Counted from the first letter of the stretch, positions 28,892-62,990 are shown. The stretch: DNA of 64,000 nucleotides from Candidatus Moranbacteria bacterium RIFCSPHIGHO2_01_FULL_55_24 (GCA_001786575.1 MFRW01000002.1:1717-65716); one strand, 5' to 3'. The notes: a model not told the origin generated them from the sequence alone. A program made the numbers and translations.

Positions 28892-30214
28892 TTGAAGCGG
28901 CGGAATACCAAAAAAATGAGGCAAATTTTCATACGTCTGGCGAAAAACTCCTTTATTCGGAACAGCTTCGTGCTCTTTGCGGGCACGATGATCGTGAACG
29001 TCTTGAACTACGTGTTTCACCTGGTGGTGGGTCGCATGGTAGAGCCGGCGGCGTACGGGGAAATCGAGTCGCTTATCTCGCTTCTGGCGATTATTTCCGT
29101 GCCGGCTGCTACGCTGACGCTCATCGCCACCAAATACGCGGCCAATATGAAGGCAGGCCAGGATACGCGCGGGGTGCGCATCCTCTCGCGTTACCTCAAC
29201 CGCAAGCTTTTCTTTTACGGATTGCCCCTGCTCGTGCTCGCGTTCTGCCTGACTCCTCTGGTGAAGCGCTTTCTCAATATCGGGAGCAATCTCCCGATCC
29301 TCTACCTGTGGGGAGTGATGGCGCTTTCTTTCCTAAGCGCGGTGACGGCCGGGATCCTCACGGGATGGCAGAAATTTTTCCATACCAATATCTCCGGAGT
29401 GCTTTCTACGATCCTGAAGCTCGGAGCTGCTTTCTTGTTCATCCGCTGGGGGTTCGGGGTGAGCGGAGTGATCGGAAGCTATGCTCTGGCGATACTTTTC
29501 GGATATCTCATCTCCCTCTTTTTTCTCCGGCGCTTCTTTTATCAAGACGCTTCTCCGGAGGATAAGTCCGTGGAACCGCACTTCCCTTCGCTCAAGGGGT
29601 ACGTACTCCCGGCTTTCTACGGGACGCTCGCTGTTGCGATTCTCGGAAATGCGGATATGATCTTCGCCAAGCATCACCTGGGGGCAGAGGCATCCGGAGA
29701 GTACGGAGCGCTCTTCATAGTAGCGAAAACGATCTTCTTCGTCACCGGCGTGCTGACCACGGTGCTTTTCGCGATGTCGGCGGAAGAGAGCGCGAGCGAA
29801 AAAAGAGCGACGTACACCTTCCGGATCGCGGCAGGACTCACCTGTCTTACGGCTCTCGTCTCGGTATTCTTTTTCTCGCTTTTTCCGGGCTTGGTGATGG
29901 GGGTATTCTTCGGAGAGAAGTATCTGGCTGTAAGCCATCTTCTGGGATGGTTCGCGCTCGCGGCCGGGACATACTCGATTGCCAACCTGTTTCTCCAGTA
30001 TCTCCTCTCGCTCCATAAGACTCGCATAGCCTCGCTCTTTTTGGCTCTTTCCGGCCTAGAAATAGCCGCTTTGTTTTTCTTCGGAGAGGGCTTGTATGCT
30101 ATAATCGGGATAACAATCGGGACACAGATGCTTGCCGCTCTCCTGGGCCTCTTTTTCGTGCTGAAGGAAAACCATCATGCCAAAGCTGATTTCTATCGTC
30201 ATCCCAGTCTATAA
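28892..30214 (+). CDS. wzx: Oligosaccharide flippase (Wzx/MOP superfamily polysaccharide biosynthesis protein)
   Basis: 440 aa with about 12 predicted TM helices. The N-terminal pattern is typical of RfbX/Wzx. It overlaps the downstream GT2 by 38 nt. Confidence 0.75.
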   Translation: MKRRNTKKMRQIFIRLAKNSFIRNSFVLFAGTMIVNVLNYVFHLVVGRMVEPAAYGEIESLISLLAIISVPAATLTLIATKYAANMKAGQDTRGVRILSRYLNRKLFFYGLPLLVLAFCLTPLVKRFLNIGSNLPILYLWGVMALSFLSAVTAGILTGWQKFFHTNISGVLSTILKLGAAFLFIRWGFGVSGVIGSYALAILFGYLISLFFLRRFFYQDASPEDKSVEPHFPSLKGYVLPAFYGTLAVAILGNADMIFAKHHLGAEASGEYGALFIVAKTIFFVTGVLTTVLFAMSAEESASEKRATYTFRIAAGLTCLTALVSVFFFSLFPGLVMGVFFGEKYLAVSHLLGWFALAAGTYSIANLFLQYLLSLHKTRIASLFLALSGLEIAALFFFGEGLYAIIGITIGTQMLAALLGLFFVLKENHHAKADFYRHPSL

Positions 30215-31130
30215 CGAGGAGAAGAATGTCCCTGCGGTAGCAGGGGCGCTTCGCGATGTCTTGGCCGGTTTGTCGTACGACTATGAGATCATTTTCGTAA
30301 ACGACGGCAGCCGCGATAACAGTCTGCCGGAAATCTGCCGCTTGTCGCAGAATGACGCGCGGATCAAAGGCATCGACTTTTCCCGGAATTTCGGCAAGGA
30401 AGCGGCCACATCGGCCGGCTGCCATGCGGCGGCAGGGGATGCGGTCATCACCATGGATGCCGATCTCCAGCACCCGCCGGCCTTGATCCCGGAGCTCATC
30501 AGGCACTGGGAGGACGGCGCGGAAGTCGTCTATACCGTCCGCAAGAAGACGAAAGGCATCAACATAATGAAAAAGATTACTTCCAGCCTGTATTACTGGA
30601 TGTTCAAGAAGATGTCCTCGGTGGCGACGGAACCGCGTTCGACGGACTTCCGCCTCATGGACAAGAAAGTGATCGAGATGTTCCGGCGCCTGCCGGAGCG
30701 CGGGCGCATGTTCCGCGGCCTGATCGATTGGATGGGATTCAAGCGCCAGCGGGTAGAGTTCGATGCGAATGAGAGGCTCCACGGGAAAGCCGGATACTCG
30801 TACCAGAAGCTCTTCCGCCTGGCTATGAACAGCTTCACGTCCTTTTCCCTTCTGCCCCTGAAGCTGGCCGGTTATCTGGGGCTACTTATTACCTTTTTCA
30901 GCGGATTGCTCCTCTTGATAATGTTAGCGGCACGCTGGGGATTTAATCCTCATCTTTTTACTCCGCTTTCAGTACTAGCGACAATAAATATTTTCTTGGT
31001 AGGCATCGTTCTCATCTCTCTCGGTTTCATCGCGCTCTATATCGCCCGTATCCACGACGAAGTGATCGACCGCCCGCTCTATATCGTAAGAGAAAAGATC
31101 AATCTGGATAACGGGATGAAAGGGGAATAA
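30177..31130 (+). CDS. GT2 polyprenyl-phosphate sugar transferase (GtrB/ArnC-like)
   Basis: [10 protein letters not shown]...FVNDGSRD...DADLQHPP (DxD) is followed by two C-terminal TM helices, as in DPM1/ArnC/GtrB. Confidence 0.8.
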
Positions 31131-31147: not shown

Positions 31148-32104
31148 ATGATGGAAAAGAAGAAAATTCTTGTAACTGGCGGCGCTGGTTTTATCGGGTC
31201 GCATCTCTGCCGCAGGCTTTTGGACGAAGGGCACGAAGTGCTCTGCGTGGACAACTTCTTCACCGGGAACAAGGACAATATCCTGGACCTCCTCTCGAAC
31301 CCTCGCTTCGAATTTCTCCGGCATGACGTCACCTTCCCGCTCTATGTCGAAGTAGACCAGATCTACAACCTGGCTTGCCCGGCCTCGCCGATCCATTATC
31401 AGTTCGACCCGGTGCAGACTACCAAAACTTCGGTGCACGGCGCCATCAATATGCTGGGTCTGGCCAAGCGCACCAAGGCCAAGATTCTCCAGGCTTCGAC
31501 GAGCGAGGTCTACGGCGATCCGGAAATGCACCCGCAGAGAGAGGACTACTGGGGCCACGTTAATCCGATCGGCTTCCGTTCCTGCTACGATGAGGGCAAA
31601 CGCTGCGCGGAGACGCTCTTCTTCGACTACTACCGCCAGCACAAGCTCGATATCCGCGTCATCCGTATCTTCAATACCTACGGGCCGAACATGCATCCTG
31701 CTGACGGGCGGGTGGTATCGAACTTTATCGTCCAAGCGCTTAGGAATAAAGATATCACCATCTATGGGGATGGCTCGCAGACGCGAAGCTTCCAGTATGT
31801 GGACGATCTGATCGATGGCATGATCCTCATGATGAACAACAAGGATGGCTTCATCGGGCCGGTGAATATGGGAAATCCGGGGGAATTCACCATCAAAGAA
31901 TTAGCCGAAAAGGTGCTCCACATGCTTCCTGACAGCACGAGCAAGATCGTGTACAAGGATCTGCCGCATGATGACCCCAAGCAGCGTCAGCCGGACATCT
32001 CTCTTGCCAAGGAGAAGCTCGTGGGATGGGAGCCGAAAGTCGGGCTCGATGAGGGGCTTGAGAAGACAATCGATTACTTCAAACACAGCCTCTCGCTCAT
32101 GTAA
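31148..32104 (+). CDS. uxs: UDP-glucuronate decarboxylase (UDP-xylose synthase, UXS/ArnA-C-domain-like)
   Basis: [35 protein letters not shown] and the C-terminal pattern are highly characteristic of UXS. Confidence 0.9.
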
Positions 32105-39591: not shown

Positions 39592-39597
39592 AAAATT

Positions 39598-40623: not shown

Positions 40624-40650
40624 GTCCCTAACTTATTTTTTTAAAAAAGT

Positions 40651-46081: not shown

Positions 46082-46873
46082 ATGAAATCGAAAAAGACCA
46101 CACTTGATCAATTTACGAGCATATACTCTCATCCTTCAGCCATCCTCTTTCGGGCGATCGAGATGAAAACGATCCATCAAAATCTCGAAGGCATCGAATT
46201 CTCGCACCCTTCCCTGGATCTTGGCTGTGGCGATGGAAGGATTGCCGAGCTTATTTTCGATCAACCCTTCACTTATGGAGTCGACAACGGTGAAGCAAAA
46301 GATGTGGGTGATGCGGTGGAAAGCGGGCGTTATGAGAAAATCTTTTTGGAAAGCGCAGAGAAGATGTCTCTACCTGACGATTCAGTCAACTTTGTCTTCA
46401 GTAATTGCGTGATTGAGCATATTCCGGATAATGAAGCAGTATTGAGCGAAACCAGCAGGATCCTGAAGAGGGGCGGCGCGTTCGTTTTTACAGTACCAAG
46501 CCATAACTTTCCTAACTATCTCTATCTGACGAATAAGTTCGCCTCCTGGGGACTAGGCTTCCTTTCCCGTTTTTACAAATACCGGAGAAATAAGATGCTA
46601 AACCAGTTCCACTGCTACAGCGCGGAAGATTGGCAGCAGAAGCTTGCGAAGCATGGGTTCAGGATAGTGAAACATGAATATTACATGACCCAAGAAGCTC
46701 TCATGCTCTGGGACAGGATAGCCTTAGAGCTTTTCTTCAAAAAGATCCTCTGGCCGCATTATGAGAAAAAGGCTCTTAGGAAGTACTTGGAATTGATCCG
46801 CAAGATAGCGGAAAGCGATAAATCACCTGAGGGTAAGGGGGCTGGCCTCTTCGTTTACTGTGTTAAAGATTAA
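46082..46873 (+). CDS. Class I SAM-dependent methyltransferase (Methyltransf_11-like)
   Basis: Motif I LDLGCGDGR and the post-I acidic residue are present, as is ILKRGGAFVFTVP. Confidence 0.75.
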   Translation: MKSKKTTLDQFTSIYSHPSAILFRAIEMKTIHQNLEGIEFSHPSLDLGCGDGRIAELIFDQPFTYGVDNGEAKDVGDAVESGRYEKIFLESAEKMSLPDDSVNFVFSNCVIEHIPDNEAVLSETSRILKRGGAFVFTVPSHNFPNYLYLTNKFASWGLGFLSRFYKYRRNKMLNQFHCYSAEDWQQKLAKHGFRIVKHEYYMTQEALMLWDRIALELFFKKILWPHYEKKALRKYLELIRKIAESDKSPEGKGAGLFVYCVKD

Positions 46874-46884: not shown

Positions 46885-47610
46885 TTGAAACCAATATTTA
46901 TGATTAAAAAGTACCTGAAGCATCTTATTGAGACAGCAGAAGAAAATTATCTGAACAATCTTTATGATGGGATACGTGGATTGAATGTTGAAAGTATGTT
47001 AGATATAGGCTGTTATACTGGAGAAAATACCATCCAAATAGCCTCACTCTGTGATGCAAAGAAAGTTTATGGTATTGAATTGAATGAGGATGCAATCAAA
47101 ATAGCAAAGGGGAGGGGCGTAGAGGTCTATAAGCAAGATATAAATGAAGCGCATTGGAATATAGAAGACAACTCCATTGATTTTATTTATAGTAACCAGG
47201 TTATTGAACATCTTTACTCGGTGGATAACTTCATTAAGAATATAAAAAGAATTTTAAAAAAAGATGGGTATTTACTTATTTCTACAGAAAATCTTGCAGG
47301 ATGGCACAATTGCTTCTCATTGATTTTAGGGTATCAACCATTTAGCACAACAAATATATGCACGAAACAGTGGAGTATTGGGAATCCTCTAAGCATGGTG
47401 TTAGACGGTCATCATGATCCACTCATGGTGCATCGAGCAGTATTTACTTACTATGCGTTGAAAAAATTCTTAGAACTTTATGATTTTAAAATAGAAAAAC
47501 CTATCACTTCAGGGTATTATCCTTTACCTAATAAGTTAGGAAATATTTTTGCCAAGATTGACAGAAGACATTCGGTTTATATTGCATTTCTAGTGAAGAA
47601 TATTAAATAA
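46885..47610 (+). CDS. Class I SAM-dependent methyltransferase (second copy, very AT-rich)
   Basis: MLDIGCYTGEN (motif I) and NQVIEHLYSV...ILKKDGYLLIST are present. GC is about 33%. Confidence 0.7.
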   Translation: MKPIFMIKKYLKHLIETAEENYLNNLYDGIRGLNVESMLDIGCYTGENTIQIASLCDAKKVYGIELNEDAIKIAKGRGVEVYKQDINEAHWNIEDNSIDFIYSNQVIEHLYSVDNFIKNIKRILKKDGYLLISTENLAGWHNCFSLILGYQPFSTTNICTKQWSIGNPLSMVLDGHHDPLMVHRAVFTYYALKKFLELYDFKIEKPITSGYYPLPNKLGNIFAKIDRRHSVYIAFLVKNIK

Positions 47611-47617: not shown

Positions 47618-50116
47618 ATGTTAAAAAAGCTTCGAATAAGTAAAGTTTTGAAATACTTCCAGGGGTCTAGAGGGATTCTCTTCGCAATTCTTCTTTTGGC
47701 ATTGGCGTTGCGGGTCTGGGGTATCGATTCGAGAGACATCTGGTATGATGAGCTTCTGACAATACAGCAATCAGAGAAAAGTATTTCGGAAATCAATGTT
47801 GATGTTCCGACGCCAATACACTATTACTTCGTCCATCTTTTCCTCTTTTTCGGTAAGAGTACCTCGGTGCTTGGGCTACCCTCGGTTATTTTCGGTCTTC
47901 TGACCGTCCTCCTTGTTTTTTTGACGGCAAAGAGGATTGCGGATGAAAGAGTCGGATTGGTCGCCGCGTTTCTCTTGGCGATTTCTCCGATGCACATCGA
48001 ATTCTCCCAGCAAATTCTTTTTTTCTCATACTTCACATTCTTTTCTTCGCTTATCCTCTATCTTGTTACCGACTTCATATTTCATTTTGAAGAAGGCAGG
48101 TTCAAATGGGGCCATCTTCTGCTTCTCGTCTTCGCGAACTGGGTGAATGTCCTGACCCAGATGCTCGCTCTTGTTCTCATCCCTGTCCAGCTGCTCTTTT
48201 TCTGCTATTTGCTCGCGAAGAACCCGAAAGTAATGCTGGTCTTCAAGAAGTACCTGGCATTAATATTGATACTGATTGCCGCGCTCTTCTCGATACTTCT
48301 GTCCATAGGGAGCGGGGGATATGCGAGTTTTCTCGAGACGCTCCACATCGGTTTCGAAAGACCGATTACGGTCGGATACTCGCTTTCTAGCCAGTTGGGG
48401 TCGACGATAGTCAGTTCCCCAATGAAACTCTTCCAGGCGATGTTTTCGTGGTTCGGAATCGGAGGAGGTATCGGGCTTCCTGTCTATGTTTGTTTCTTCT
48501 TCATAGGCTTGATTGCTTTGTTTTGGAAGAAAGTTTCCCGATCCGCTGCTTTCTTCTTTGTTCTCTGGCTTGCGGCACCGTTCGTTGTCCTTTTTTCAGT
48601 GAGGATTGAGCACTGGTTCGAGGAAAAGTATTTCATCTTCATGATTCCGGTCTATCTGATCTTTATCGCCTTAGGAATCGTCTTCTTTTCCGAATATACA
48701 GGAAGGTTGGTGAGAGAAAAAATCAGCATTTTGAAAATCAAAGGTTTTGCAGTTTTCTTTCTGGCGCTGATCTTAGTCGGCATCGCTTTCTTAGCGGTCG
48801 AACCGATCAAGAGCCGGACGGCTTTCGGATTCCCATTCGAGGGTTATGCGAAATACAACTGGAGAAAGGTCTATGATTATTTGAAGAAAAACGTGAATGA
48901 GAACGATAGAGTATTCCTCGTGAAAGGAGGATCCGATTTTTTGGACTATTACTATGCTGCCGATAAGAACGAAAGCTTATTGTTGGACGAAGAATCCATA
49001 ATGAAGCTTTCTTCGAAGGAGTACTCTCATCTTGTCGAAAACCAAGAGCAGAATTATTTCATTTCTATCCCGGATTACAACTATCTCTTTTTGAGCGATA
49101 TCACGACTTATGAAAAGATCAAGATGGTAGGGAATTTCGGGATATATAAAATACGATTCAAAAAAGAGAGTCCGGTAGAGATAAAAAGGGACGCAGCTGG
49201 CGAATGGGAATATTATGAAGACTTCCGGACGTCGCGGTATATAGGGCAGGCGCATGACTGGAAAAATAGCGCTACGACGTATTCGGATGTGCCGGGTATT
49301 CCTGAAACCGAAGGCTTCAATGAACTCGTGCCGCTCAACTCCGGAGAATCTTTCATAGATTACAAGCTCGTTCTTCCTGAAGGAACAAAGAGTTTTTACC
49401 TGAAATCAGGATTCTCGCTTGATCAGGGATCTTCATTCCAGATACTCATTGGCGAAAGCCAGGATGCGCTGCGTGTTATTTATGACCAGTCAGCCGGAGA
49501 ACTCTCTTACTTCCTCCCCGAGATGAAGATTGACTATGATACAAAGAAGTCGAAAGATCTGTTTCTGCGGATGCGTTTTAACCAGGCTCCCGGCGCTTCA
49601 GGAGAATTGAACAAGTCAGGGCTCAAATTTTTTAGCTTGAGCAGCCGCTTGTACGACGGTGTCAGATTTCCCGAAGACTATACGCCGCAAAAATCCGTTA
49701 AGGGCTCCTCCCAGGAATACCTCTATAATGCCTTTCTTGAGATAGAAAAGAGCTCAAAATGGACCCATGCTACTATTATGAGTGATGGCTGGATCCAAAC
49801 GAATGACGGATTCTTGGTAAGGATTTACGGTACCAAGGAGGCTAACCCTTTGGTATTCAAATTCGCTACGGGGGAAGAGGAACGCGATTGTGATCTCGAG
49901 ATAAAATCTTTCGCGAACCATGATAATCCATTCGAGGTGTATACAAGCCAGGATGGAAAGACTTGGGAACTTCTCAAGAAAATGAATGATAATGTATTTA
50001 AAATTGATACGTTCAGCATCAAGGATATCGCTTCAGGAGATCTCTTCCTGAAATTTACTTCCGAAAAAGAAGGAGTTTCAAGTCAGATCAGGAACATAAA
50101 GGCAATATGTAAGTGA
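47618..50116 (+). CDS. GT-C membrane glycosyltransferase (PMT/ArnT GT39/GT83-like) with a large C-terminal extracytoplasmic domain
   Basis: 832 aa. A DE motif sits in the first extracytoplasmic loop (DIWYDELLT). About 11 TM helices are followed by a roughly 450-aa beta-rich soluble domain. Confidence 0.6.
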   Translation: MLKKLRISKVLKYFQGSRGILFAILLLALALRVWGIDSRDIWYDELLTIQQSEKSISEINVDVPTPIHYYFVHLFLFFGKSTSVLGLPSVIFGLLTVLLVFLTAKRIADERVGLVAAFLLAISPMHIEFSQQILFFSYFTFFSSLILYLVTDFIFHFEEGRFKWGHLLLLVFANWVNVLTQMLALVLIPVQLLFFCYLLAKNPKVMLVFKKYLALILILIAALFSILLSIGSGGYASFLETLHIGFERPITVGYSLSSQLGSTIVSSPMKLFQAMFSWFGIGGGIGLPVYVCFFFIGLIALFWKKVSRSAAFFFVLWLAAPFVVLFSVRIEHWFEEKYFIFMIPVYLIFIALGIVFFSEYTGRLVREKISILKIKGFAVFFLALILVGIAFLAVEPIKSRTAFGFPFEGYAKYNWRKVYDYLKKNVNENDRVFLVKGGSDFLDYYYAADKNESLLLDEESIMKLSSKEYSHLVENQEQNYFISIPDYNYLFLSDITTYEKIKMVGNFGIYKIRFKKESPVEIKRDAAGEWEYYEDFRTSRYIGQAHDWKNSATTYSDVPGIPETEGFNELVPLNSGESFIDYKLVLPEGTKSFYLKSGFSLDQGSSFQILIGESQDALRVIYDQSAGELSYFLPEMKIDYDTKKSKDLFLRMRFNQAPGASGELNKSGLKFFSLSSRLYDGVRFPEDYTPQKSVKGSSQEYLYNAFLEIEKSSKWTHATIMSDGWIQTNDGFLVRIYGTKEANPLVFKFATGEEERDCDLEIKSFANHDNPFEVYTSQDGKTWELLKKMNDNVFKIDTFSIKDIASGDLFLKFTSEKEGVSSQIRNIKAICK

Positions 50117-50138: not shown

Positions 50139-50927
50139 ATGAAAACGGTAATACTATGTGGAGGAAAGGGTACACGGTTACGGGAAGAGACTGAATTTAA
50201 ACCGAAACCGATGGTAGAGATCGGCGACCTTCCTATACTGGTACATATCATGCGGTTTTATGCCGAACAGGGGTTTAACGAATTCGTTTTGTGTCTTGGG
50301 TACAAAGGGGATGTCATCAAGGATTATTTCCTTAATCTGTCGAAATTCGTAAATGATTTCCATCTTGATCTGAAGACGAACAGTATCGAATATCTCAATA
50401 ATGGGCACAACTTTGATTTCAAGATCACTTTTGTTGAAACGGGCGAGGATACGCAGAGCGGAGAACGTGTCAAAATGGCATCGAAGTATATTCCGGAAGA
50501 AGAATTCATGGTGACGTATGGGGACGGTGTGAGTGATATCGATATACGGAAACTGATACAGTTCCACAAGAAGCAGAAGCAGAAGCACGGGACAGTCACT
50601 ACGCTTTCAGCTGTGCATCCATCTTCGAAATACGGAAAGATCTATGCTGACAAAAACAATGTGCTAGAGAAATTTGACGAAAAGCCGGTGCTTGCTGACT
50701 ATATCAATGGCGGTTTCATGGTCATGGAAAAAGCGGCGCTCAAGTATATCAAGGATGGGGATATGCTGGAGGATGGTCTGCAGAAAATGACGAAGAAGCA
50801 TAAGCTTTCACAGTACTGCCATAGCGGTTTCTGGCACAGTATGGATACGATGAAAGATGTCATGGACCTCAATAAGATGTGGGAAAGCGGAAAGCGCCCT
50901 TGGGCTCTTTGGGAAACTAAGCGGTAA
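50139..50927 (+). CDS. rfbF: Glucose-1-phosphate cytidylyltransferase
   Basis: MKTVILCGGKGTRLREETEFKPKPMVEIGDLPIL...GGFMVMEK is the canonical RfbF/DdhA sequence. Confidence 0.9.
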   Translation: MKTVILCGGKGTRLREETEFKPKPMVEIGDLPILVHIMRFYAEQGFNEFVLCLGYKGDVIKDYFLNLSKFVNDFHLDLKTNSIEYLNNGHNFDFKITFVETGEDTQSGERVKMASKYIPEEEFMVTYGDGVSDIDIRKLIQFHKKQKQKHGTVTTLSAVHPSSKYGKIYADKNNVLEKFDEKPVLADYINGGFMVMEKAALKYIKDGDMLEDGLQKMTKKHKLSQYCHSGFWHSMDTMKDVMDLNKMWESGKRPWALWETKR

Positions 50928-50958
50928 TCCATTTATTTTTTCTTCATTCTTGTCTTTT

Positions 50959-52038
50959 ATGCAGCGCTTCTTCAAAGGAAAAAAAATTCTTATCACGGGA
51001 AATACCGGTTTCAAGGGTTCTTGGCTTACGGAGATATTATTACAGTGGGGTGCTGACATTGTCGGCGTTTCGCTTCCGCCAAAAACAGAACCAAACCTTT
51101 TCGCTATCCTGAATTTGGAGCAGCGGATAAAAAACTATTTTCTCGATATAAGGGATTTCGATGCCTTGAAGAAGGTGATTGCCGACGAGCGTCCGGAAAT
51201 AGTCTTTCATCTTGCGGCGCAGCCGATCGTGCGGATAAGCTATGATGATCCTCTAACGACCTATTCAACCAATGCTCTCGGTACTGCAAATGTTTTGCAG
51301 GCGATCCATGAGGTTGGGTCCGTGAGGGCAGCGGTAATCATCACTACGGACAAGGTTTATAAGAATGTCGAGTGGATATACCCGTACCGTGAAAACGACC
51401 CCTTAGGGGGGTATGATCCTTACAGCGCCAGCAAGGCGGCTGCCGATATCATTGCGCAATCGTACATACAATCTTTTTTCAATCCGAAGGACTTTGGGAA
51501 AAAGCATCAGACGCTCGTAGCTATTGCGCGCGCCGGGAACGTGATCGGAGGAGGGGATTGGGGGGAGTATAGGCTGGTTCCTGACATTGTGAGGTCGATA
51601 TATGAAAAGAATGAGAAAGTAATTATCAGGAGTCCGCGAGCTATCCGTCCCTGGGAGCATGTTCTTGAGCCGCTTGCGGGATATCTCGAGCTCGCTTCCG
51701 GTCTGTATGCCGGGAAAATCGAATATTCGGATGCCTGGAATTTCGGGCCGGACCATGAAAGTTTCATGAATGTCGAAGAGCTCGTCAAGCGGGCCACGGC
51801 GCTTTTAGCGAAAGGCACATATGAGATCCGGGAAGATAATACGAAACATGAGGCCGGAATCCTGATGCTTGATACCACCAAGGCAAAATCTTTTTTGGAT
51901 TGGTCGCCAAGATTGAGGTTTCAAGAGAATATCGACTTCACATTCAGCTGGTATAGGAACTATTACGAAAAAGCAGCGGACCCTATCGAGTTCACAGACG
52001 CACAGATCAAGTCCTTCTTCAATGATGCAAGTTCCTAA
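50959..52038 (+). CDS. rfbG: CDP-glucose 4,6-dehydratase
   Basis: KKILITGNTGFKGSWL...YSASKAAAD...RAGNVIGGGDW is the canonical RfbG/DdhB sequence. The start is set at the ATG at 50959; the ORF-track 50857 is an extension. Confidence 0.9.
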   Translation: MQRFFKGKKILITGNTGFKGSWLTEILLQWGADIVGVSLPPKTEPNLFAILNLEQRIKNYFLDIRDFDALKKVIADERPEIVFHLAAQPIVRISYDDPLTTYSTNALGTANVLQAIHEVGSVRAAVIITTDKVYKNVEWIYPYRENDPLGGYDPYSASKAAADIIAQSYIQSFFNPKDFGKKHQTLVAIARAGNVIGGGDWGEYRLVPDIVRSIYEKNEKVIIRSPRAIRPWEHVLEPLAGYLELASGLYAGKIEYSDAWNFGPDHESFMNVEELVKRATALLAKGTYEIREDNTKHEAGILMLDTTKAKSFLDWSPRLRFQENIDFTFSWYRNYYEKAADPIEFTDAQIKSFFNDASS

Positions 52039-52136
52039 GATCGGTCGAAATCGCCTCGGCCAGCTGCTGATAAAATCCAGATTAGAGCAGCCGGAACTTC
52101 CAGGTCGGACCAGAGTAAGCAACTGAAAAAGAGATT

Positions 52137-53438
52137 ATGAAAAAAGAGCTAGAAGATATCATTCGGAAAGAATACCAAGAGAGATTTCCTAAAAAAGAAT
52201 TCATTCCAGGAGAGTCTGCTGTGCCTGTTTCTGGAAAAGTTTTTGATGAACAGGAAATGATTCTCATGACCGAGGCGGTACTGGAAGGCTGGTGGACCGA
52301 GGGGCATATGACGAATGAATTTGAGCAGAAGCTTGCCGAGTATATAGGGGTGAAATTCTGCTCGACTGTCAATTCCGGCTCTTCAGCGAATCTGACGGCT
52401 TTTACCGCGTTGACCTCGCATCTCTTGGGTGAGAGGCGTATCAAGCCAGGAGATGAGGTTATTACGGTAGCAGCCGGTTTTCCTACGACTATCAACCCTA
52501 TTATCCAGAACGGCTGTGTGCCGGTGTTTTTGGATGTGGAGCTCGAGACCCTCTCGATAGATGTGAGCCAGCTTGAACAGGCATTGAGCGAGAAAACAAA
52601 GGCGGTGATGATAGCGCACACGCTCGGTAACCCGTTCGACTTGGGAGCTATCAAAGATTTTTGTGAGAAGCATAAGCTTTGGTTTGTTGAGGATAATTGC
52701 GATGGATTGGGGAGTAGATACGACGGTAAGCGCACTGGCTCTTTCGGGCATATCTCTACGGTCAGCTTTTATCCAGCGCATCATATTACGACTGCTGAAG
52801 GTGGGGCGGTATTCACTGATAATGTCGTGTTGAATAAGATTATCCGATCGGTACGCGACTGGGGACGCGATTGCTGGTGTCCAACTGGCAAAGATAACAC
52901 CTGCGGCGTCAGATTTAACTGGCAACTTGGAAAATTGCCCAAAGGCTATGATCACAAATATACGTATTCGCACCTGGGATATAACCTCAAAATGACTGAA
53001 ATTCAGGCAGCTTGCGGTTTAGCACAGCTTGAGAAGCTGGAGGGATTTGTAGAGAAGCGGAAGAAGAACTACACTTTACTGCGCGAGAAGCTTGGAAAGT
53101 TTGAGAAGTTTCTTCTCTTTACAGATCCTATCGCTAAGGCTGACCCGAGCTGGTTCGGATTCCTCATTACCGTGAAGGATGGCGCTCCGTTTACTCGTGG
53201 GGAATTGCTTGAGTACTTGAATGGTCGAAAAATCGCTACTCGGCTCCTTTTTGCTGGTAATATTACTCGGCAGCCATATTTTACGAATTCTGGTATCCGA
53301 TATCGTCAGATAGGGGAATTGAAGAATTCTGACAAGGTGATGATGGATACCTTTTGGATAGGTCTGCACCCGGGTATTACGGGAGAGATGATCGACTGGG
53401 TAGCAGACTCTTTCGAAGATTACTTTGGGAAATTATGA
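52137..53438 (+). CDS. rfbH: CDP-6-deoxy-D-xylo-4-hexulose 3-dehydrase (E1, RfbH/DdhC)
   Basis: A DegT-family fold with His replacing the PLP lysine (SFYPAHHITTAEGG), which is the hallmark of PMP-dependent E1. Length is 433 aa. Confidence 0.85.
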   Translation: MKKELEDIIRKEYQERFPKKEFIPGESAVPVSGKVFDEQEMILMTEAVLEGWWTEGHMTNEFEQKLAEYIGVKFCSTVNSGSSANLTAFTALTSHLLGERRIKPGDEVITVAAGFPTTINPIIQNGCVPVFLDVELETLSIDVSQLEQALSEKTKAVMIAHTLGNPFDLGAIKDFCEKHKLWFVEDNCDGLGSRYDGKRTGSFGHISTVSFYPAHHITTAEGGAVFTDNVVLNKIIRSVRDWGRDCWCPTGKDNTCGVRFNWQLGKLPKGYDHKYTYSHLGYNLKMTEIQAACGLAQLEKLEGFVEKRKKNYTLLREKLGKFEKFLLFTDPIAKADPSWFGFLITVKDGAPFTRGELLEYLNGRKIATRLLFAGNITRQPYFTNSGIRYRQIGELKNSDKVMMDTFWIGLHPGITGEMIDWVADSFEDYFGKL

Positions 53439-54373
53439 TTAAGACTGTCCTCATAACCGGTATTGCTGGTTTCCTCGGCAGCCATTTGGCTGAAAGATTG
53501 ATTCATGACGGATATGCTGTGGTAGGACTGAAACTTGCGGATTCTGACCTCTGGAGGCTTGAACCTTTCGCAGAGAAGTTGAAACTCTATGATGCTGATT
53601 CCAGAGATTTTGAACGTATCTTTACCGAGAATAAGATAGATTGCATCATTCATCTGGCAACATACTACACAAAAGACCACCCTTCTCCTGACGAGATGAC
53701 GCAGATGATTGATGCGAACATCAAGTCTCCTACGGAGCTCTGCGAGCTTGCGGACAATTATAACGTCAGATATTTCATCAATACTGGTACATTTTTCGAA
53801 TATAAACTCGGAAGTCCTGATCTGATACAGGAAAATGATGAGAGAAGCGCATATAACTTCTACGCTGCCACGAAAATAGCCTTTTCGGAATTGCTTAGGT
53901 TTTTTACAGAGAAGAAAGATTTAACCGCTATCGATTTCAAGCTTTTTGCGCCGTTCGGAGAGAAGGATAATGAGAAGCTCATAGTATTCTTGGTAAAGTC
54001 ATTGCTTGACGGGTCTCATGTTGAATTTTCTGGAGGGGAGCAGGCTTGGAATTTCACGTATGTAGACGACATTATCGAGGCTTATGCATGCGCGCTTAAG
54101 AGAATGGATGGCCTTGCTGAAAAGTATACCGTGCTGAACGTCGGTTCCGGATCTACTGTGACTATTCGAGAGATTGTAGAAAAGTTGGAAAAGATATCCG
54201 GGAAAAAGCTTGATATCGAGTGGGGAGCCAAGACGTACAGAGAGAATGAAATTTTCCATGTGAATTGTGACAATTCCCGATTGAAAAAAGTCCTCGGGTG
54301 GGAACAGAAATTTGATGTAGACAGCGGATTGGAGAAAACATATCGTTATTATGCGACGGCAGCTAATCTATAG
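53435..54373 (+). CDS. NAD(P)-dependent CDP-3,6-dideoxyhexose synthase/4-reductase (RfbS/RfbJ/AscF-like SDR)
   Basis: VLITGIAGFLGSHLAERL (GxxGxxG) and YAATKIA (YxxxK). It overlaps rfbH by ATGA. Length is 312 aa. Confidence 0.7.
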   Translation: MIKTVLITGIAGFLGSHLAERLIHDGYAVVGLKLADSDLWRLEPFAEKLKLYDADSRDFERIFTENKIDCIIHLATYYTKDHPSPDEMTQMIDANIKSPTELCELADNYNVRYFINTGTFFEYKLGSPDLIQENDERSAYNFYAATKIAFSELLRFFTEKKDLTAIDFKLFAPFGEKDNEKLIVFLVKSLLDGSHVEFSGGEQAWNFTYVDDIIEAYACALKRMDGLAEKYTVLNVGSGSTVTIREIVEKLEKISGKKLDIEWGAKTYRENEIFHVNCDNSRLKKVLGWEQKFDVDSGLEKTYRYYATAANL

Positions 54374-54389
54374 GAATCAATAACATATT

Positions 54390-54878
54390 TTGAGTATGGA
54401 AGAAAAAATACCAGGAGTAACGGGTAAGATGATCGAAGGGGTAGTGATAAAGAGACTTGCGAAAATTCCAGATGAGCGTGGATGCGTTTCCCATATGCTG
54501 AAGAAAGAGGATGCACATTTCAATGGCTTTGGAGAGATCTATTTTTCTAGCGTCTATCCTGGAGCGATCAAGGCTTGGCATGTTCATAAGGAAATGGAGC
54601 TGAATTACGCTGTCATATCAGGAGACATCAAATTCGCGCTCTACGATGATCGCGAGGGATCTCCGACTCGTGGTAATCTTATGGAAATTTTCATGGGAGA
54701 AAAGAATTATATCTTAGTAAAGGTTCCGGTCATGGTGTGGAACGGCTTCAAAGGTATCGGCAGTAAAGAGGCTATCGTTGCCAATTGTACGACGTTATCC
54801 CATCGTCCCGATGAGATAGAGCGTTTAGATCCATTTTCGGATAAGATTCCGTACGACTGGGAATTAAAAAACGGGTAA
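54390..54878 (+). CDS. RmlC-like cupin sugar epimerase/isomerase (possibly CDP-3,6-dideoxyhexulose 5-epimerase AscE-like)
   Basis: 162 aa. DERG and KAWHVHK correspond to the catalytic His/Lys region of the RmlC/FdtA cupin families. Confidence 0.6.
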   Translation: MSMEEKIPGVTGKMIEGVVIKRLAKIPDERGCVSHMLKKEDAHFNGFGEIYFSSVYPGAIKAWHVHKEMELNYAVISGDIKFALYDDREGSPTRGNLMEIFMGEKNYILVKVPVMVWNGFKGIGSKEAIVANCTTLSHRPDEIERLDPFSDKIPYDWELKNG

Positions 54879-54890: not shown

Positions 54891-57800
54891 ATGCGGATAA
54901 GTTTGGTTATTCCGGCGTATAATCGGGAAGCGCTCATTCGGGAGGCTATCGAGAGCGCTCTGGAGCAAACTGAAAAGATAGACGAAATCATTATCATAGA
55001 TAATGATTCGCTCGATGCTACCTTTCGGATTGCAGAGGAGTATGTGGCGAAATATGATCATATCAAGGCCTTTAGGAATGAGAAGAACATTGGAATGATC
55101 AACAACTGGAACCGAGGGATCCAGAAGGCCACTGGAGACTACGTGAGCGTGCTGCATTCTGACGACATCATTCCCAAGAACTGGTGCGAGACCGTGAAGT
55201 CAGCCATTCGGAGGAATGAGGGGAAAGATGTTGCTCTCTTTTTTGGTATTTATGCTTGTTTCCAGCGGAAGCAAGGGAAGATAGAAGTTGTCTCAAGGAT
55301 TGAAAATTTTTCTAAAGATACTTTTTTCCCAGCCGAAGAATCAGTAAAGAGGCTCTGGGAGAATTTTTATGGGAATCCGAATTGTTCCGCGGCCATAGTT
55401 TATAAGAAGTCTCTTTTTGATGAAATTGGATATTTTAACCCGGACAAAGGCGTGGAGGCGGATCAGGATTTCCACATACGGGTTCTCAATAGGTATAATT
55501 CCTATTTCATCGACCAGGAACTTTTGTATTACAGGCGCCACGAATTTCAGGGATACGATTTCAAGCAAGAGACTGAATCGGCCGAGACGAGCCTAAAGCG
55601 TCTCCTGAATGCTGTCAGCATCCAGAAGGAGAATCTGAAAGATCCAGAGCTAGTCAAATATACCTATTGTGGCGTCCTGCTCTACGCTCTCAAATTCTTG
55701 TTAACGCTCCATTTCAGCCAGGCGCTCCGCTTGTTCAAAATACCAGGTATTTTCAATCGGAAGACGCTTACGAATTTCCCGAGATTTTTTTGGATGCTCG
55801 TTTCTCGAAAATATTTCAATAAATCTTTCATACTTAAATTTAGGAAAACCAGGATTTCTCTCCTTTTCTTTCTGTTTTCCTGTCTGGTTCTGCGATCTTT
55901 GATTTTTTCAAGCTACGAGGGTATTGGACATAATTGGGATTGGGGATTCCCAGCTATGCAGCCGATGTTTGAGAGGATTAACGAGCTTTCGGAGTACTCT
56001 TGGAATGGCTTTGGCTTAGGAAAAGAGCTCAATTTACAGGCTCATTTTGCGGTTAATGAGATCATCTCTTGGTCTGGGGCGATCTTAGGTACCAAATGGG
56101 CCGTAGTATTGCTTATTTTCAGTACGTTGACTATCTCCTTTTTTTCATTCAAGCCGTTACTTGATTTCCTAAGCGGACGGAAGTCCGATCTTCACTATTT
56201 ACCGAGCGTCCTCTACGCTTTCTCGCCGTTTCTTTTCAATGAGATTATCGGTGGGTCTTGGTATATGTGGGTTTCATATGCTTTTGCCCCGGTTCTTTTC
56301 TTGAATCTGATCCGATATGTGCATTTTAGAAGATTGAAACATCTCACGGGATATTTATTGGCCACGGTTTTCGTGTTGATATCTCTGCAGAACTTCGTAG
56401 TCATCGAATCGATTGCGGCGGTATTTCTTCTTTTTAATATGATCCTTAACAGGGATCATTTGGAGAATGTCAAGGGTTTGGTCGCAGGCTATCTTTGGGC
56501 GCATCTCATTTTGTTTCTCGCTAGTCTTTATTGGATAGTCCCTTTCATCTACTCTCTCAAGACATTCTATCTGATGGTTACAAGCGTTTCCTTTACGGGC
56601 GGCTTCGAAGGCATCCGTGATATTACCCAGGGCGTGCTCGAGATATTTTCTTTGGCAGGATATTTGGATAGGAATATGTATTATCATGCTATCCCTGATG
56701 GAGCCCTTCTCCTTTTCAACATTTCTGTGGCAGCGTTTTGGGTAATGCTTTCTGCGACTTTTTTTCTCAAGCGACAGGAGGAGAAACAAAAAAAGAACGT
56801 GTTGCTCTGGTTTTCCATACTGATACTCCTGATTCTCGTTATCAAAGGAGGAAATGCTCCCTTCGGAAGCCTCACAATGTTCATCTTCCAGCATTTCCCA
56901 TTGATGTCGCTATACAGAAGTCCGCAGCATCTGATGTTTGCGGCAGCCTTTCTTGTCCCGATACTCATGGCCTTGACAATCCATTCTTTTATCCGGAGCG
57001 GATTTTCAAAAAAAACGGTAATAGTTCTTTTTCTTCTGATTATCGGCTTTTGGACAAGCGCCTGGTGGCTGAATGGTGACCTGGGCCGTGAGATATTAAG
57101 TGCCAAGAAGAAGGACCATATAGATCTCTACACCATCGCTCCGACTCTGCGAAAGATTTATGAATACAATGAGAACAGTTTTTTGGCGCATCGTATCCTC
57201 TTCCTTCCTACAGCTTTCAGTCCTGATTACTTGCCGAATGAGTATCAAAGAAAAGCCCAAGGCGGCCAGCCGGAATATTCATATCTTAAGAACCCGACTT
57301 TTAGCGCAGAGTTCAATGCTCTCGCAGGCCTTATCGATGATAAGCTCTGCTATAACGAAGAATTCGACCTCCTGAAATACCTTTCGATTACCAACACCCG
57401 ATATGTTTCGCTCCGGGAAGATATCTATCCGCACCATTCTAAATGTGGAATTTTTAAGGTTTGGGATGCGGATCATACTCGTAAGCTCATTGAAAATACA
57501 GCTGGTTTAGCGCCTGTCAACGGATTAGAGGGATTGTACTTAGTAGGGGATGAATACTTCTTGCAGCGTTTCTTCGTTCCGAAAAAAGTCGTTGTATCGG
57601 ACCGTGAGGTTGAAAATATTCCCGATATCGTTTCTACGGACGACTACGAGGTTGGTACAGCGCTCTTCCTGAAGAGTCAGAATAAAGAAAGGACTGACGT
57701 GCTGGACACAGCTAGTATCGCGCGGATATCTGGCAGAGATAAGGATCCGACGTTGGAATTTAAGAAAATAAGTCCCGTGAAATACAGGATGAGGATTCAT

Positions 57801-58385
57801 GGCGCGAAGGGCGTGTTCCCGCTCGTTTTTAATGAGAGTTTCCATGAAGGATGGAAGCTGTATCCCGGAGAATCTGATAGTGTGCTGTTTTCAGCTTCTG
57901 CAGCGGGTAGGATCGGAAATTATCATGTTATTGACGGCAATGTCGAAAATCAGGCGAGTCAAGATGAATTAGAGCGATATATCCGAAGAGGATGGGTTAC
58001 TGGTTTTGGAGAAACAAATAATATCAGTTTCGTCTCTAAGGATTTTCGAGGCGCTATCCAAAATAATAATTTACCCGATGGGGATTTCTGGGAAAACTGG
58101 TTTCGGAAAGGATCTTTGAATGGCGTCTCTGGGCATCTGGTGGTGAACGGATATGCGAATGCTTGGATTATCGATCCGGAAGAAGCATGCTCTGCGAGGG
58201 CTGCTTTCTGCAAGAAGAATCAGGATGGCACATATGATTTTGAGATTGTGGCCGAATTTTGGCCCCAGAGGCTTATGTCTCTTGGCCTAGGACTCTCGGT
58301 TGCGGGATTGGCAGTATTTCTGGTATTTTTCGGTATTGTACGGATGGTAAAAGCAGCTCGGACTGGCAAGGGGGAAGCATTGTGA
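54891..58385 (+). CDS. Giant fusion protein: N-terminal GT2 domain plus a polytopic membrane domain plus a C-terminal extracytoplasmic domain
   Basis: The first ~270 aa are GT2 (SLVIPAYNRE...IIIDNDSLD...HSDD). They are followed by about 14 TM helices and a roughly 400-aa soluble C-terminus ending in a TM anchor. Length is 1164 aa. Confidence 0.7.
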   Translation: MRISLVIPAYNREALIREAIESALEQTEKIDEIIIIDNDSLDATFRIAEEYVAKYDHIKAFRNEKNIGMINNWNRGIQKATGDYVSVLHSDDIIPKNWCETVKSAIRRNEGKDVALFFGIYACFQRKQGKIEVVSRIENFSKDTFFPAEESVKRLWENFYGNPNCSAAIVYKKSLFDEIGYFNPDKGVEADQDFHIRVLNRYNSYFIDQELLYYRRHEFQGYDFKQETESAETSLKRLLNAVSIQKENLKDPELVKYTYCGVLLYALKFLLTLHFSQALRLFKIPGIFNRKTLTNFPRFFWMLVSRKYFNKSFILKFRKTRISLLFFLFSCLVLRSLIFSSYEGIGHNWDWGFPAMQPMFERINELSEYSWNGFGLGKELNLQAHFAVNEIISWSGAILGTKWAVVLLIFSTLTISFFSFKPLLDFLSGRKSDLHYLPSVLYAFSPFLFNEIIGGSWYMWVSYAFAPVLFLNLIRYVHFRRLKHLTGYLLATVFVLISLQNFVVIESIAAVFLLFNMILNRDHLENVKGLVAGYLWAHLILFLASLYWIVPFIYSLKTFYLMVTSVSFTGGFEGIRDITQGVLEIFSLAGYLDRNMYYHAIPDGALLLFNISVAAFWVMLSATFFLKRQEEKQKKNVLLWFSILILLILVIKGGNAPFGSLTMFIFQHFPLMSLYRSPQHLMFAAAFLVPILMALTIHSFIRSGFSKKTVIVLFLLIIGFWTSAWWLNGDLGREILSAKKKDHIDLYTIAPTLRKIYEYNENSFLAHRILFLPTAFSPDYLPNEYQRKAQGGQPEYSYLKNPTFSAEFNALAGLIDDKLCYNEEFDLLKYLSITNTRYVSLREDIYPHHSKCGIFKVWDADHTRKLIENTAGLAPVNGLEGLYLVGDEYFLQRFFVPKKVVVSDREVENIPDIVSTDDYEVGTALFLKSQNKERTDVLDTASIARISGRDKDPTLEFKKISPVKYRMRIHGAKGVFPLVFNESFHEGWKLYPGESDSVLFSASAAGRIGNYHVIDGNVENQASQDELERYIRRGWVTGFGETNNISFVSKDFRGAIQNNNLPDGDFWENWFRKGSLNGVSGHLVVNGYANAWIIDPEEACSARAAFCKKNQDGTYDFEIVAEFWPQRLMSLGLGLSVAGLAVFLVFFGIVRMVKAARTGKGEAL

Positions 58386-62048: not shown

Positions 62049-62990
62049 ATGGAAAATAACTTCCCGTACCTGTCGGTGGTCGTTCCCTTGTATAACGAAG
62101 AAGGGAACGTAGCAGAACTGCACCAGAGAATCCTCCAAGCTGTCCAGAAGATCGGACGGCCTTTTGAAATTATCTTCGTGGATGACGGCTCGCGGGACAA
62201 GTCAGTAGAGATCGCCCGGACGCTTTCGCCTCTCAAGCTTATCGAATTCCGCAAGAACTTCGGCCAGACCGCCGCCTTCGATGCCGGGTTCAAGGCGGCC
62301 CGAGGCGAGATCGTCGTCACCTTGGATGGTGACCTGCAGAACGATCCGGAAGATATCCCGCTTCTCCTCGAGAAGCTCGGCGAGGGCTATGATGTCGTGT
62401 CCGGCTGGCGGTACAAGCGACAAGACCCTTGGAGCAAGAAGATTCCATCGCGGATCGCCAATCTGCTCCGGACAATCCTTATCCGTGACAACATCCATGA
62501 TTCCGGCTGCAGCTTGAAAGCGTATAAGAAGGAATGCTTCGAGAATCTCGATCTCTTCGGCGAAATGCACCGGTTCATTCCGGCTCTCCTCATGTTGGAC
62601 GGTTTCCGGGTAGGTGAAGTGAAAGTTTCGCATCATCCGCGGGTAAACGGAAAGACCAAGTACAACTGGAAGCGGGGCGTGAAGGGCTTCGTGGATATGA
62701 TCGCTATCTGGTTCTGGCGCAAGTATTCCTACCGGCCGATTCATCTTTTCGGCGGTTTCGGGGTGTTGCTCTCATTTTTGGGGAGCGCGATCCTTTTCTG
62801 GATGCTCGTGGAGAAATTCGTCTTCAATCATGCGATTGGCGAGCGCCTGTGGCCGCTGATTGGCATTTTTCTCGTCCTTATGGGCGTCCAGCTCTTCGTG
62901 GCCGGACTCCTGGCAGACATGCTGGTCCGCAACTATTACCAGGTGCGGAACCGCATGAACTACTCGATTCGCGCAGTGCGCGATCAGTAG
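62049..62990 (+). CDS. GT2 polyprenyl-phosphate sugar transferase (GtrB/DPM1-like)
   Basis: LSVVVPLYNEE...FVDDGSRD...DGDLQNDP (DxD) plus two C-terminal TM helices. It is a paralogue of the gene at 30177-31130. Confidence 0.85.
   Translation: MENNFPYLSVVVPLYNEEGNVAELHQRILQAVQKIGRPFEIIFVDDGSRDKSVEIARTLSPLKLIEFRKNFGQTAAFDAGFKAARGEIVVTLDGDLQNDPEDIPLLLEKLGEGYDVVSGWRYKRQDPWSKKIPSRIANLLRTILIRDNIHDSGCSLKAYKKECFENLDLFGEMHRFIPALLMLDGFRVGEVKVSHHPRVNGKTKYNWKRGVKGFVDMIAIWFWRKYSYRPIHLFGGFGVLLSFLGSAILFWMLVEKFVFNHAIGERLWPLIGIFLVLMGVQLFVAGLLADMLVRNYYQVRNRMNYSIRAVRDQ

Follow-up and report, generated by a model that had tools for sequence, protein, structure and literature searches.

The window analysed here is a 64,000-nucleotide (64-kb) stretch of DNA from Candidatus Moranbacteria bacterium RIFCSPHIGHO2_01_FULL_55_24 (MFRW01000002.1:1717-65716). 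Its plus strand carries an ATG-initiated open reading frame (ORF) of 832 amino acids (47618..50116), here called the target, whose product is a GT-C glycosyltransferase of the GT-C_A fold and the PMT_2/PMT clan. We conclude that it probably works at the outer face of the cytoplasmic membrane, taking its sugar from a polyprenyl phosphate to decorate or extend a cell-surface polysaccharide. Donor class, sugar identity and glycan acceptor are predictions within this reading. A monosaccharide-phosphate donor is proposed because such donors are established for characterised GT-Cs of the PMT_2/PMT type: to our knowledge ArnT, the PMTs, the TMTCs and Rgt/Lgm all use polyprenyl- or dolichyl-monophosphate monosaccharides. 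A glycan acceptor is favoured because the target has an ectodomain of tandem carbohydrate-binding module (CBM) type, is inherited together with a module of multiple glycosyltransferases (GTs), sugar-supply enzymes and methylation enzymes, and has characterised precedents. The enzyme class and the combination of a GT-C with CBMs are already known, and the target is an uncharacterised member of a well-understood class rather than a new principle. What is new is the rare family to which it belongs, the three-part ectodomain specific to that family, the constant presence beside it of a methyltransferase and of a probable second GT-C, and its occurrence in the Candidate Phyla Radiation (CPR). An ArnT-like core joined to two CBMs would be a new architecture among the few GT-Cs with acceptor-binding modules.

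The membrane domain and its conserved outer face

In Pfam the target exceeds the gathering cut-offs of both PMT_2 (PF13231; 39.4 bits against 26.1, E 9.4e-10, residues 66-222) and PMT (PF02366; 25.4 bits against 22.7). Among the NCBIfam models it has weak sub-threshold matches only, to the Agl23-like and archaeo_STT3 models. A word-indexed search of 5.8 billion proteins returned 39 full-length homologues of 28-81% identity (788-846 amino acids, and one of 984), of which 38 either have a precomputed PMT_2 and/or PMT match or are full-length homologues of a member with such a match. All derive from metagenomes or metagenome-assembled genomes (MAGs), and the most specific name among them is the generic 'ArnT-like glycosyltransferase'. 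Comparison with solved GT-Cs by sequence alone failed: a phmmer search of every PDB chain with the transmembrane (TM) half, at E up to 10, had zero matches. The profile of the family did not align significantly with ArnT either, so that GT-C membership rests on Pfam and on the fold. An alignment of target and ArnT around 'R-x-x-W...DE' was dropped as evidence in view of the same profile comparison. The deposited NCBI protein OGI22340.1, a hypothetical protein identical or near-identical to the target, has 822 residues as against the 832 counted from the first ATG; the longer start is used by the JGI, ENA and Logan calls, homologues align from it, and the difference is one of start-codon choice only.

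The fold was examined in an AlphaFold2 model built on the family alignment (mean predicted local distance difference test score, pLDDT, 89.1; predicted TM-score, pTM, 0.79). Residues 1-400 (47618..48817, plus strand) form a membrane domain of 11 TM helices with the N-terminus inside and the C-terminus outside, as judged from DSSP of the model, a positive-inside count and Foldseek, with short juxtamembrane helices following TM1. Foldseek searches of the PDB with this half returned GT-C matches at a probability of 1.00, with the highest target-normalised TM-scores for ArnT (0.56 for 5ezm, 0.53 for 5f15) and Pmt4 (9i5k, 0.53); AglB, STT3 and PglB were matched at E 1e-7 to 1e-8. The GT-C nature of the protein, first put forward in a preliminary description of the window made from the sequence alone, is thus borne out by hidden Markov model (HMM) search and structural comparison alike.

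Topology follows from charge. By the helix boundaries of the model, 21 of the 73 inner-loop residues are lysine or arginine, against 13 of 167 in the outer loops. Six such residues and zero acidic ones are present at the N-terminus, the loop after TM1 that bears the DE motif is acidic (seven Asp/Glu, four Lys/Arg), and the same bias is present in 33 of the 39 family members. Because of this positive-inside bias the DE loop, E128, the HWFEEKY block and the C-terminal domain are all placed outside, and the outward orientation of the DE motif proposed in that description holds, a cytoplasm-facing loop not being what was found.

The DE motif itself (D44/E45, 47747..47752, within 'RDIWYDE') opens the first outer loop, directly after TM1, and is the putative catalytic base and donor-binding site. 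E45 is invariant among the 39 full-length homologues and D44 is present in at least 95%. In solved GT-Cs the catalytic acidic residue likewise lies just after TM1 (PMC11127046). The block SPMHIEFSQQ (residues 123-132, 47984..48013), with the invariant E128, lies on the outer face between TM3 and TM4, where conservation over 20-residue windows reaches its maximum for the family (0.85). The HWFEEKY block (residues 332-338, 48611..48631), placed where the TM9-TM10 loop has its outer end, is invariant save for H332 (at least 95%), served as a family-specific search pattern and is a candidate phosphate or metal site. Windowed conservation peaks at residues 41-80, 121-140 and 321-340, and the three most conserved blocks of the target all face outwards. 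The catalytic roles suggested here for D44/E45, E128 and H332-Y338 are putative.

The structural kinship with ArnT (GT83), the undecaprenyl-phosphate-4-amino-4-deoxy-L-arabinose:lipid A transferase, raises the question of whether the target might be lipid-directed, adding a pentose or aminopentose to a membrane glycolipid or lipid anchor. ArnT belongs to PMT_2 as the target does and gives the best target-normalised TM-score, and an ArnC-like gene stands together with a gene resembling the decarboxylase of ArnA and UXS at 30177-32104. These two are, however, the only arn companions found, they lie 16 kb from the target, and the ArnC-like genes are not co-conserved with it. Equivalents of ArnB, ArnD and ArnE/F are missing among the scanned cluster genes, where the DegT-family gene is RfbH, and no ArnT model appears among the NCBIfam matches at E up to 1. 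ArnT also differs in architecture, being a protein of about 550 amino acids with a small periplasmic domain and no CBM-type beta-sandwich, and in acceptor, which is lipid A. The host of the target belongs to the CPR, whose members are not known to make lipid A. With the ArnT profile alignment non-significant as well, a lipid-directed function appears highly improbable.

The three-part ectodomain and the acceptor

Residues 401-832 form an external domain of 432 amino acids which, modelled separately (pLDDT 88.9, pTM 0.87), is predicted to consist of an alpha/beta subdomain and two jelly-roll beta-sandwiches of CBM/discoidin type. The alpha/beta subdomain spans residues 401-520 (48818..49177). 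The first sandwich, at about residues 521-705 (49178..49732), is recognised from the model and Foldseek and is the most divergent part of the protein, with 30% mean pairwise identity. The second, at about residues 706-832 (49733..50113), is discoidin/CBM32-like by profile, repeats and Foldseek, and contains the invariant W715, W725, Q727 and G731. An external beta-rich domain of some 450 residues had been proposed in the preliminary description; its external position is upheld, at 432 residues, and its purely beta character is not, residues 401-520 being alpha/beta. The accompanying guess of an F5/8 discoidin or CBM fold proved apt, since structural comparison gave CBM-type matches and the last sandwich is kin to F5_F8_type_C repeats.

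Foldseek matches the ectodomain to proteins with tandem jelly-roll CBMs, among them Paenibacillus alpha-1,6-glucosyltransferase (5x7o, 9.5e-11), the CBM region of the GH101 enzyme EngBF, Xyn30D with its CBM35 and, in 4xup, a CBM22 tandem. It also matches MAM domains, repeats of reelin and the C-terminal domains of Vip3, the E values for tandem CBM22, Xyn30D, GH101, reelin and MAM being 1e-7 to 1e-10. Sequence comparisons, made independently, point the same way: the one match of the family profile in the PDB, a weak one, is to the CBM32 4a42 (E 0.16). The isolated ectodomain has no match in Pfam at E up to 5. An exhaustive HMM search found few non-family proteins that match the last sandwich (P0195, P0199 and P0201), and these carry F5_F8_type_C and MAM-like repeats. 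Among 1.84 billion representative proteins just 38 matched the ectodomain, nearly all with the same architecture of about 800-845 amino acids or fragments thereof. Mean pairwise identity within the family is 43% for the TM domain, 36% for the alpha/beta subdomain and 30-33% for the sandwiches, and yet Y445, N550, Y582, W715, W725, Q727 and G731 are invariant. Invariant residues set in a variable scaffold are a pattern typical of a sugar-binding site, which is what we infer them to be.

The closest precedent is ORF12 of Citrobacter youngae (CAZy GT136), the GT-C of a three-component system that adds pentofuranose side chains (Kelly et al., PNAS 2024, PMC11127046). In ORF12, a protein of 11 TM helices, a catalytic Asp follows TM1 and the C-terminal CBM, as assayed with the construct ORF12(503-652), binds the O-polysaccharide backbone in its unmodified form; its donor, undecaprenyl-phosphate-ribofuranose, is made and flipped by two partner proteins (PMC11127046). 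The target resembles it in the number of TM helices, in an acidic residue after TM1 accompanied by a small helical outer domain, in a C-terminal beta-rich CBM region and in its place within a polysaccharide locus, and the donor class predicted for the target, a polyprenyl-phosphate monosaccharide, is that of ORF12. The differences are considerable. ORF12 is shorter (652 amino acids) and has one CBM, whereas the target has an alpha/beta subdomain and two sandwiches (432 amino acids); ORF12 is described as unlike every existing GT family in sequence and the target matches PMT_2 and PMT, a comparison made by description only. Neither the phosphoribosyl pyrophosphate-dependent synthase nor the MATE flippase of the ORF12 system was found at the target locus, and the host of ORF12 is a diderm with O antigen whereas that of the target is a CPR bacterium.

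The preliminary description had proposed a different acceptor, naming the target as a candidate protein O-glycosyltransferase. Such an enzyme would transfer a monosaccharide from polyprenyl phosphate to Ser/Thr residues in a protein that is secreted, anchored in the membrane, or part of an S-layer or pilus, in the manner of actinobacterial PMTs or the streptococcal pairs GtrB with PgtC2 and PgfS with PgfM1. The proposal has real points in its favour: the matches to PMT and PMT_2 exceed their cut-offs, the host is presumably monoderm, and the GT2 at 30177 scores best against PgfS, a synthase of protein O-glycosylation (224 bits, below the cut-off of 500). The PMTs (GT39) share PF02366 with the target, as well as the number of 11 TM helices, the placing of a DE motif within outer loop 1 and, through Pmt4 9i5k, a structural match. 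They carry, however, a MIR beta-trefoil in the TM7-TM8 loop, and the target has no MIR match at E up to 1; its corresponding loop (residues 242-285) is about 45 residues long with two short helices, and it instead has a C-terminal CBM-type ectodomain and a polysaccharide cluster around it. The tandem-CBM ectodomain with its invariant aromatics Y582, W715 and W725 resembles that of glycan-directed GT-Cs, and the target and a multi-GT polysaccharide module are inherited closely together. The protein-directed GT-Cs of streptococci belong to the YfhO family (PMC12041528), which the target does not match. A scan of the 64-kb window found no genuine Ser/Thr-rich secreted protein, the candidates being alternative-frame artefacts; this is not decisive, because in monoderm bacteria the many membrane proteins whose Ser/Thr-rich regions are glycosylated by pairs of GtrB and GT-C have their genes elsewhere in the genome (PMC12041528). 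Taken together, these observations speak against the original proposal, and we consider protein glycosylation unlikely.

Conserved neighbours, partner X and the donor

A cell-surface glycan as acceptor is consistent with the genes that accompany the target. All ORFs of 27 loci with a family member (the window and 26 others; eight taken from genomes or encoding contigs and 19 found by scanning metagenomes) were compared by BLAST with the window proteins; many of the compared contigs are short, and absences are for this reason weaker than presences. The most constant upstream neighbour is a 263-amino-acid S-adenosylmethionine (SAM) methyltransferase (46082..46873), whose type is present in 20 of the 27 loci. 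Equally frequent (20 of 27), and the most constant partner on the downstream side, is a homologue of the protein here called X, the membrane part of a 1164-amino-acid fusion of a soluble GT2 with a polytopic membrane protein (54891..58385). Other frequent neighbours are two GT2s (17 and 16 loci), the radical-SAM enzyme (13), the C-methyltransferase (11), the GT4 (10) and RfbH (9). The GTs directly upstream, a GT4 (42836-43993) and two GT2s (44003-45070 and 45079-46071), are cytoplasmic and co-conserved with the target, whereas a second SAM methyltransferase (46885..47610, 236-241 amino acids), directly upstream of the target, occurs in only two other loci. The target begins 7 nucleotides past the stop codon of this methyltransferase and the next gene begins 23 nucleotides beyond its own stop, gaps that mark it as an operon member. 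Compared across two Moranbacteria loci, cytoplasmic enzymes share 76-89% identity, the target 53% and X 55%; this faster divergence of target and X is consistent with surface-exposed proteins. In the target, where the ectodomain also diverges faster than the TM domain, it is what one would expect of an acceptor-specific part.

The target and X are the only conserved polytopic proteins of the module. X combines 8-9 TM helices with an ectodomain and a TM helix at the C-terminus. Elsewhere it is a stand-alone protein of 693-1076 amino acids, the GT2 domain being encoded in several loci by a separate soluble GT2 gene; the fusion recurs in L001 (17610-21002), and split genes are found in L009 (7553-11001) and L010 (15961-20153). 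The X family has an invariant 'GHNWD' directly after TM1, together with 'AFSPFLFNEIIGGSWYMW', and its block 'AFSPFLFNE' resembles 'AISPMHIEF' of the target. A weak Pfam match to GT-C_AftD was obtained for the X homologue of L009, and L011 encodes an AftD-family protein. These features suggest that X is probably a second GT-C and its family an unrecognised one of that class; the assignment stays at that strength because X of the window has no match in Pfam or in PDB sequence searches. The mycobacterial arabinofuranosyltransferases EmbA-C and AftD also join GT-C cores to acceptor-binding CBMs (PMC11127046). In these proteins (GT53 and related) the GT-C domain carries extracytoplasmic jelly-rolls of CBM type, as in the target, and a single polymer is worked on outside the membrane by several GT-Cs in succession, an arrangement that recalls the pairing of target and X. 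The target nevertheless has no Pfam match to the Emb or AftD families, which are much larger and have more TM helices (AftD about 1400 amino acids), and which belong to Actinobacteria and depend on a decaprenyl-phosphate-arabinofuranose pathway.

That target and X are the sole conserved polytopic proteins also lends itself to another explanation, in which the target takes as its donor a flipped polyprenyl-diphosphate oligosaccharide, built by the phosphoglycosyltransferase, the GT4 and the two GT2s, and either polymerises it like Wzy or transfers it en bloc to an anchor like an oligosaccharyltransferase or ligase. The conserved module lacks a monosaccharide-phosphate synthase, which would fit, and Foldseek matches AglB, STT3 and PglB at E about 1e-8, with a weak NCBIfam match to archaeo_STT3 (25.8 bits). 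It retains some weight because Pfam recognised neither Wzy nor a Wzy_C ligase, an LCP protein or an ABC transporter among the window cluster genes scanned or in the precomputed annotation of the related loci. Wzy proteins often have no Pfam match, and X or the polytopic protein at 59449-61641 could be the polymerase instead. The target belongs to PMT_2/PMT and not to STT3, its best normalised structures are ArnT and Pmt4, and its likeness to STT3, PglB and AglB (GT66) is confined to the shared GT-C core. The archaeo_STT3 match spans 42 residues and falls far below the cut-off of 450, and the target sequence has no WWDYG-type motif (no WWD). We know of no characterised PMT_2-type enzyme that uses a diphosphate-linked oligosaccharide, and on these grounds regard en bloc transfer or polymerisation by the target as quite unlikely.

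If the donor is instead a polyprenyl-phosphate monosaccharide, as we favour, the window offers two candidate synthases. The GT2s at 30177..31130 and 62049..62990, the latter at the far edge of the island, both align end to end with ArnC and PgfS and have two C-terminal TM helices of the GtrB type; a full-length alignment of the former with E. coli ArnC gives 31% identity (E 1e-44). Relative to the target, the former is located 16.5 kb upstream and the latter 12 kb downstream. The GT2s at 44003 and 45079 were considered for the same role and rejected, as they match no polyprenyl-phosphate-sugar synthase model and lack the C-terminal TM pair, the 45079 protein having zero predicted TM segments and the 44003 protein one hydrophobic segment (residues 259-280). 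In the GtrA/GtrB/GtrC systems, including GacI/GacL and gmlABC, a synthase, a flippase and an outer GT-C act together on a glycan that is nascent or already completed, and the island does contain GtrB-like genes. Unlike those systems, its synthases stand 12-16 kb from the GT-C, no GtrA-type flippase was recognised (GtrA, EamA and MatE had no match among the cluster genes scanned), and the partners co-conserved with the target are instead a methyltransferase and another polytopic protein. The target is also about twice the typical size of GtrC. No ArnC-like synthase was found in the available flanks of the 26 other loci (0/26), where many contigs are short and the gene could lie elsewhere; a link between the target and the flanking GT2s is consequently plausible, yet not backed by conservation. 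The earlier description had drawn this link and had included UXS in it. Its identification of two flanking GT2s of ArnC/GtrB type stands, as does that of a UXS-like gene adjoining the first, whereas their functional connection to the target does not find support beyond the window: an orthologue of the UXS-like protein (75% identity) occurs only in L007, and L009 and L029 offer only distant matches (26-27%) among short-chain dehydrogenases/reductases (SDRs).

Several observations weigh against the target being a glycan-directed enzyme with a polyprenyl-phosphate donor, and they temper our confidence in it. One is the absence, just described, of an ArnC-like synthase from the other loci. The family profile aligns with E. 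coli ArnT at an E of only 0.058 over 83 columns (hhalign), and convergence of D44/E45, E128 and E335/E336 in three dimensions is putative. CBM-like folds occur also in protein-binding modules such as MAM and reelin. Finally, depending on the species, GT-Cs of the YfhO type modify either teichoic acids or proteins, and family membership does not predict the acceptor (PMC12041528).

The glycan island, a proposed mechanism and the host

The glycan locus occupies roughly 26-63 kb of the window, and the target lies in a long run of genes on the same strand; the genes named here for the locus are on the plus strand. At its beginning is an initiating polyprenyl glycosylphosphotransferase of WbaP/EPS type (26200-27624; TIGR03025, 366 bits against a cut-off of 295.55; Bac_transf), followed by a Wzx-type flippase (28892-30214, Polysacc_synt); neither Wzx nor a phosphoglycosyltransferase was seen in the 26 other loci, many of them on short contigs. 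The first ArnC-like GT2 is adjoined by the UXS-like SDR (31148..32104), after which come a nucleotidyltransferase (32142), a NUDIX protein (32979) and a GT2 (35844). A B12-binding radical-SAM enzyme begins at 37173; its best NCBIfam matches, all below cut-off, are the hopanoid-associated HpnJ and C-/P-methyltransferase types. It is followed by a conserved 174-amino-acid protein with four TM helices and of unknown family (39067-39591). The two (37173-39591) accompany the cluster in at least four loci, and they may be, respectively, an enzyme for radical methylation or rearrangement of a sugar and a candidate lipid-sugar flippase. Next are Gmd (39598), a sugar C-methyltransferase (40651; Methyltransf_13/14, TylC3/NovU-type) and an SDR (41805), spanning 39598-42839. 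The genes from 37173 to 42839 are predicted to supply a GDP-linked C-methyl-6-deoxyhexose, which may be evalose- or virenose-like; such a sugar is unusual for any bacterium and unreported for CPR.

Directly downstream of the target is a pathway for a CDP-3,6-dideoxyhexose (50139..54878), with RfbF-like and RfbG-like proteins, RfbH, a reductase-type SDR and a cupin epimerase-like protein. RfbH scores 692 bits against an NCBIfam cut-off of 423, the glucose-1-phosphate cytidylyltransferase 273.7 against 300.25, and the pathway looks complete, in a CPR genome. Beyond the GT2-X fusion stand two further membrane proteins. One, of 328 amino acids with an N-terminal TM anchor (58463-59449), has a weak F5/8-type-C match at its C-terminus (E 0.095) and may be a membrane-tethered lectin-like protein. 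The other, of 730 amino acids and about 9-10 TM helices (59449-61641), has orthologues in L007 and L001 and no family match in Pfam or PDB sequence searches; it is a candidate polymerase, ligase or transporter.

Public gene calls on an identical contig (L012/L013) place several starts further in: the SDR at 41898-42839 (313 amino acids), the methyltransferase upstream of the target at 46900-47610 (236), the CDP-glucose dehydratase-like protein at 50959-52038 (359), the reductase-type SDR at 53435-54373 (312), the epimerase-like protein at 54396-54878 (160) and the polytopic protein at 59464-61641 (725). The mechanical ORF starts are longer (41805, 46885, 50857, 53354, 54390 and 59449), and it is through this excess over the public calls that genes in the ORF list seem to overlap, an artefact of start choice.

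From these parts a mechanism can be proposed. A lipid-linked glycan would be built in the cytoplasm, started by the phosphoglycosyltransferase and extended by the GT4, the two GT2s and the methyltransferase(s) from GDP-linked C-methyl-6-deoxyhexose and CDP-3,6-dideoxyhexose, and would then be flipped by Wzx. In parallel an ArnC/GtrB-type GT2 (30177 or 62049 being the candidates) would load polyprenyl phosphate with a single sugar, possibly a pentose in the case of 30177 because the UXS-like gene adjoins it, and the loaded lipid would be flipped to the outer face. There the GT-C may bind it in an outer-face pocket lined by D44/E45 from outer loop 1, E128 from loop 2 and H332-Y338 from loop 5, while the CBM-like sandwiches hold the glycan acceptor, to which one sugar would be transferred. 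X would perform a further step at the outer face. A bolder proposal is that target, X and methyltransferase together form an undescribed, Wzy-independent relay for extracytoplasmic glycan assembly in CPR, in which a polymer with C-methylated and 3,6-dideoxy sugars is elongated outside by GT-Cs as mycobacterial arabinan is, and in which the target founds a new GT family in CAZy, its tandem-CBM ectodomain being unique. We hold this to be rather unlikely as a whole; were it true, the polymer could determine attachment to the host cell.

The organism is taken to be a CPR bacterium because the LepA of the window is of Moranbacteria type: it shares 100% identity with LepA of Candidatus Moranbacteria bacterium RIFCSPHIGHO2_01_FULL_55_24, and its named relatives at 79-86% identity are all Moranbacteria or Patescibacteria. 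The window also matches a 269-kb scaffold from the Rifle aquifer data, in keeping with a groundwater bacterium. The host is presumably monoderm, without outer membrane or lipopolysaccharide (LPS), and the 'periplasmic' side is therefore to be read as the outer face of the cytoplasmic membrane. Transfer outside the membrane, as the preliminary description had it, is thus retained, whereas a periplasm is not presumed, the host being presumably monoderm and without LPS. CPR bacteria, or Patescibacteria, are ultra-small, mostly uncultured and for the most part episymbionts; literature searches returned nothing on their surface glycosylation. At the Moranbacteria locus, predicted pathways for two rare sugars, a C-methyl-6-deoxyhexose and a 3,6-dideoxyhexose, are combined with methylation and with at least one, probably two, outer-face GT-Cs. 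The identity of the donor and acceptor of the target would provide a first handle on how CPR bacteria build a surface that presumably governs host attachment and phage recognition.

The G+C content of the island (about 40-50% from ~32 to 62 kb) is lower than that of the left flank (53-60%) and of the stretch at 62-64 kb (55%), and the syntenic cluster of another Moranbacteria genome, L001, has 43% against ~47% around lepA there (L017). This suggests that the low-GC island was horizontally acquired. No tRNA gene was found in the 64-kb window. The contig that carries L001 and L017, CAZTBI010000001.1, is titled 'uncultured Bdellovibrionales bacterium'; its LepA is 81% identical to the Moranbacteria LepA of the window and identical to that of the Candidatus Moranbacteria MAG GCA_018060865.1, so that the label appears wrong. 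Diderm hosts were at first hinted at by this label and by those of two further MAG loci, labelled, as deposited, 'Gammaproteobacteria' (L002) and 'Pseudomonadales' (L003). For the first of the three the hint is contradicted by the Moranbacteria-type LepA of the same contig. The left flank of the window encodes an FtsI-type penicillin-binding protein, a Mur ligase, serine hydroxymethyltransferase, LepA and RecJ. A GT4 of 476 amino acids followed by a 722-amino-acid DUF4012 protein (10306-13868) lies in this high-GC flank outside the island and may represent another envelope-related pair.

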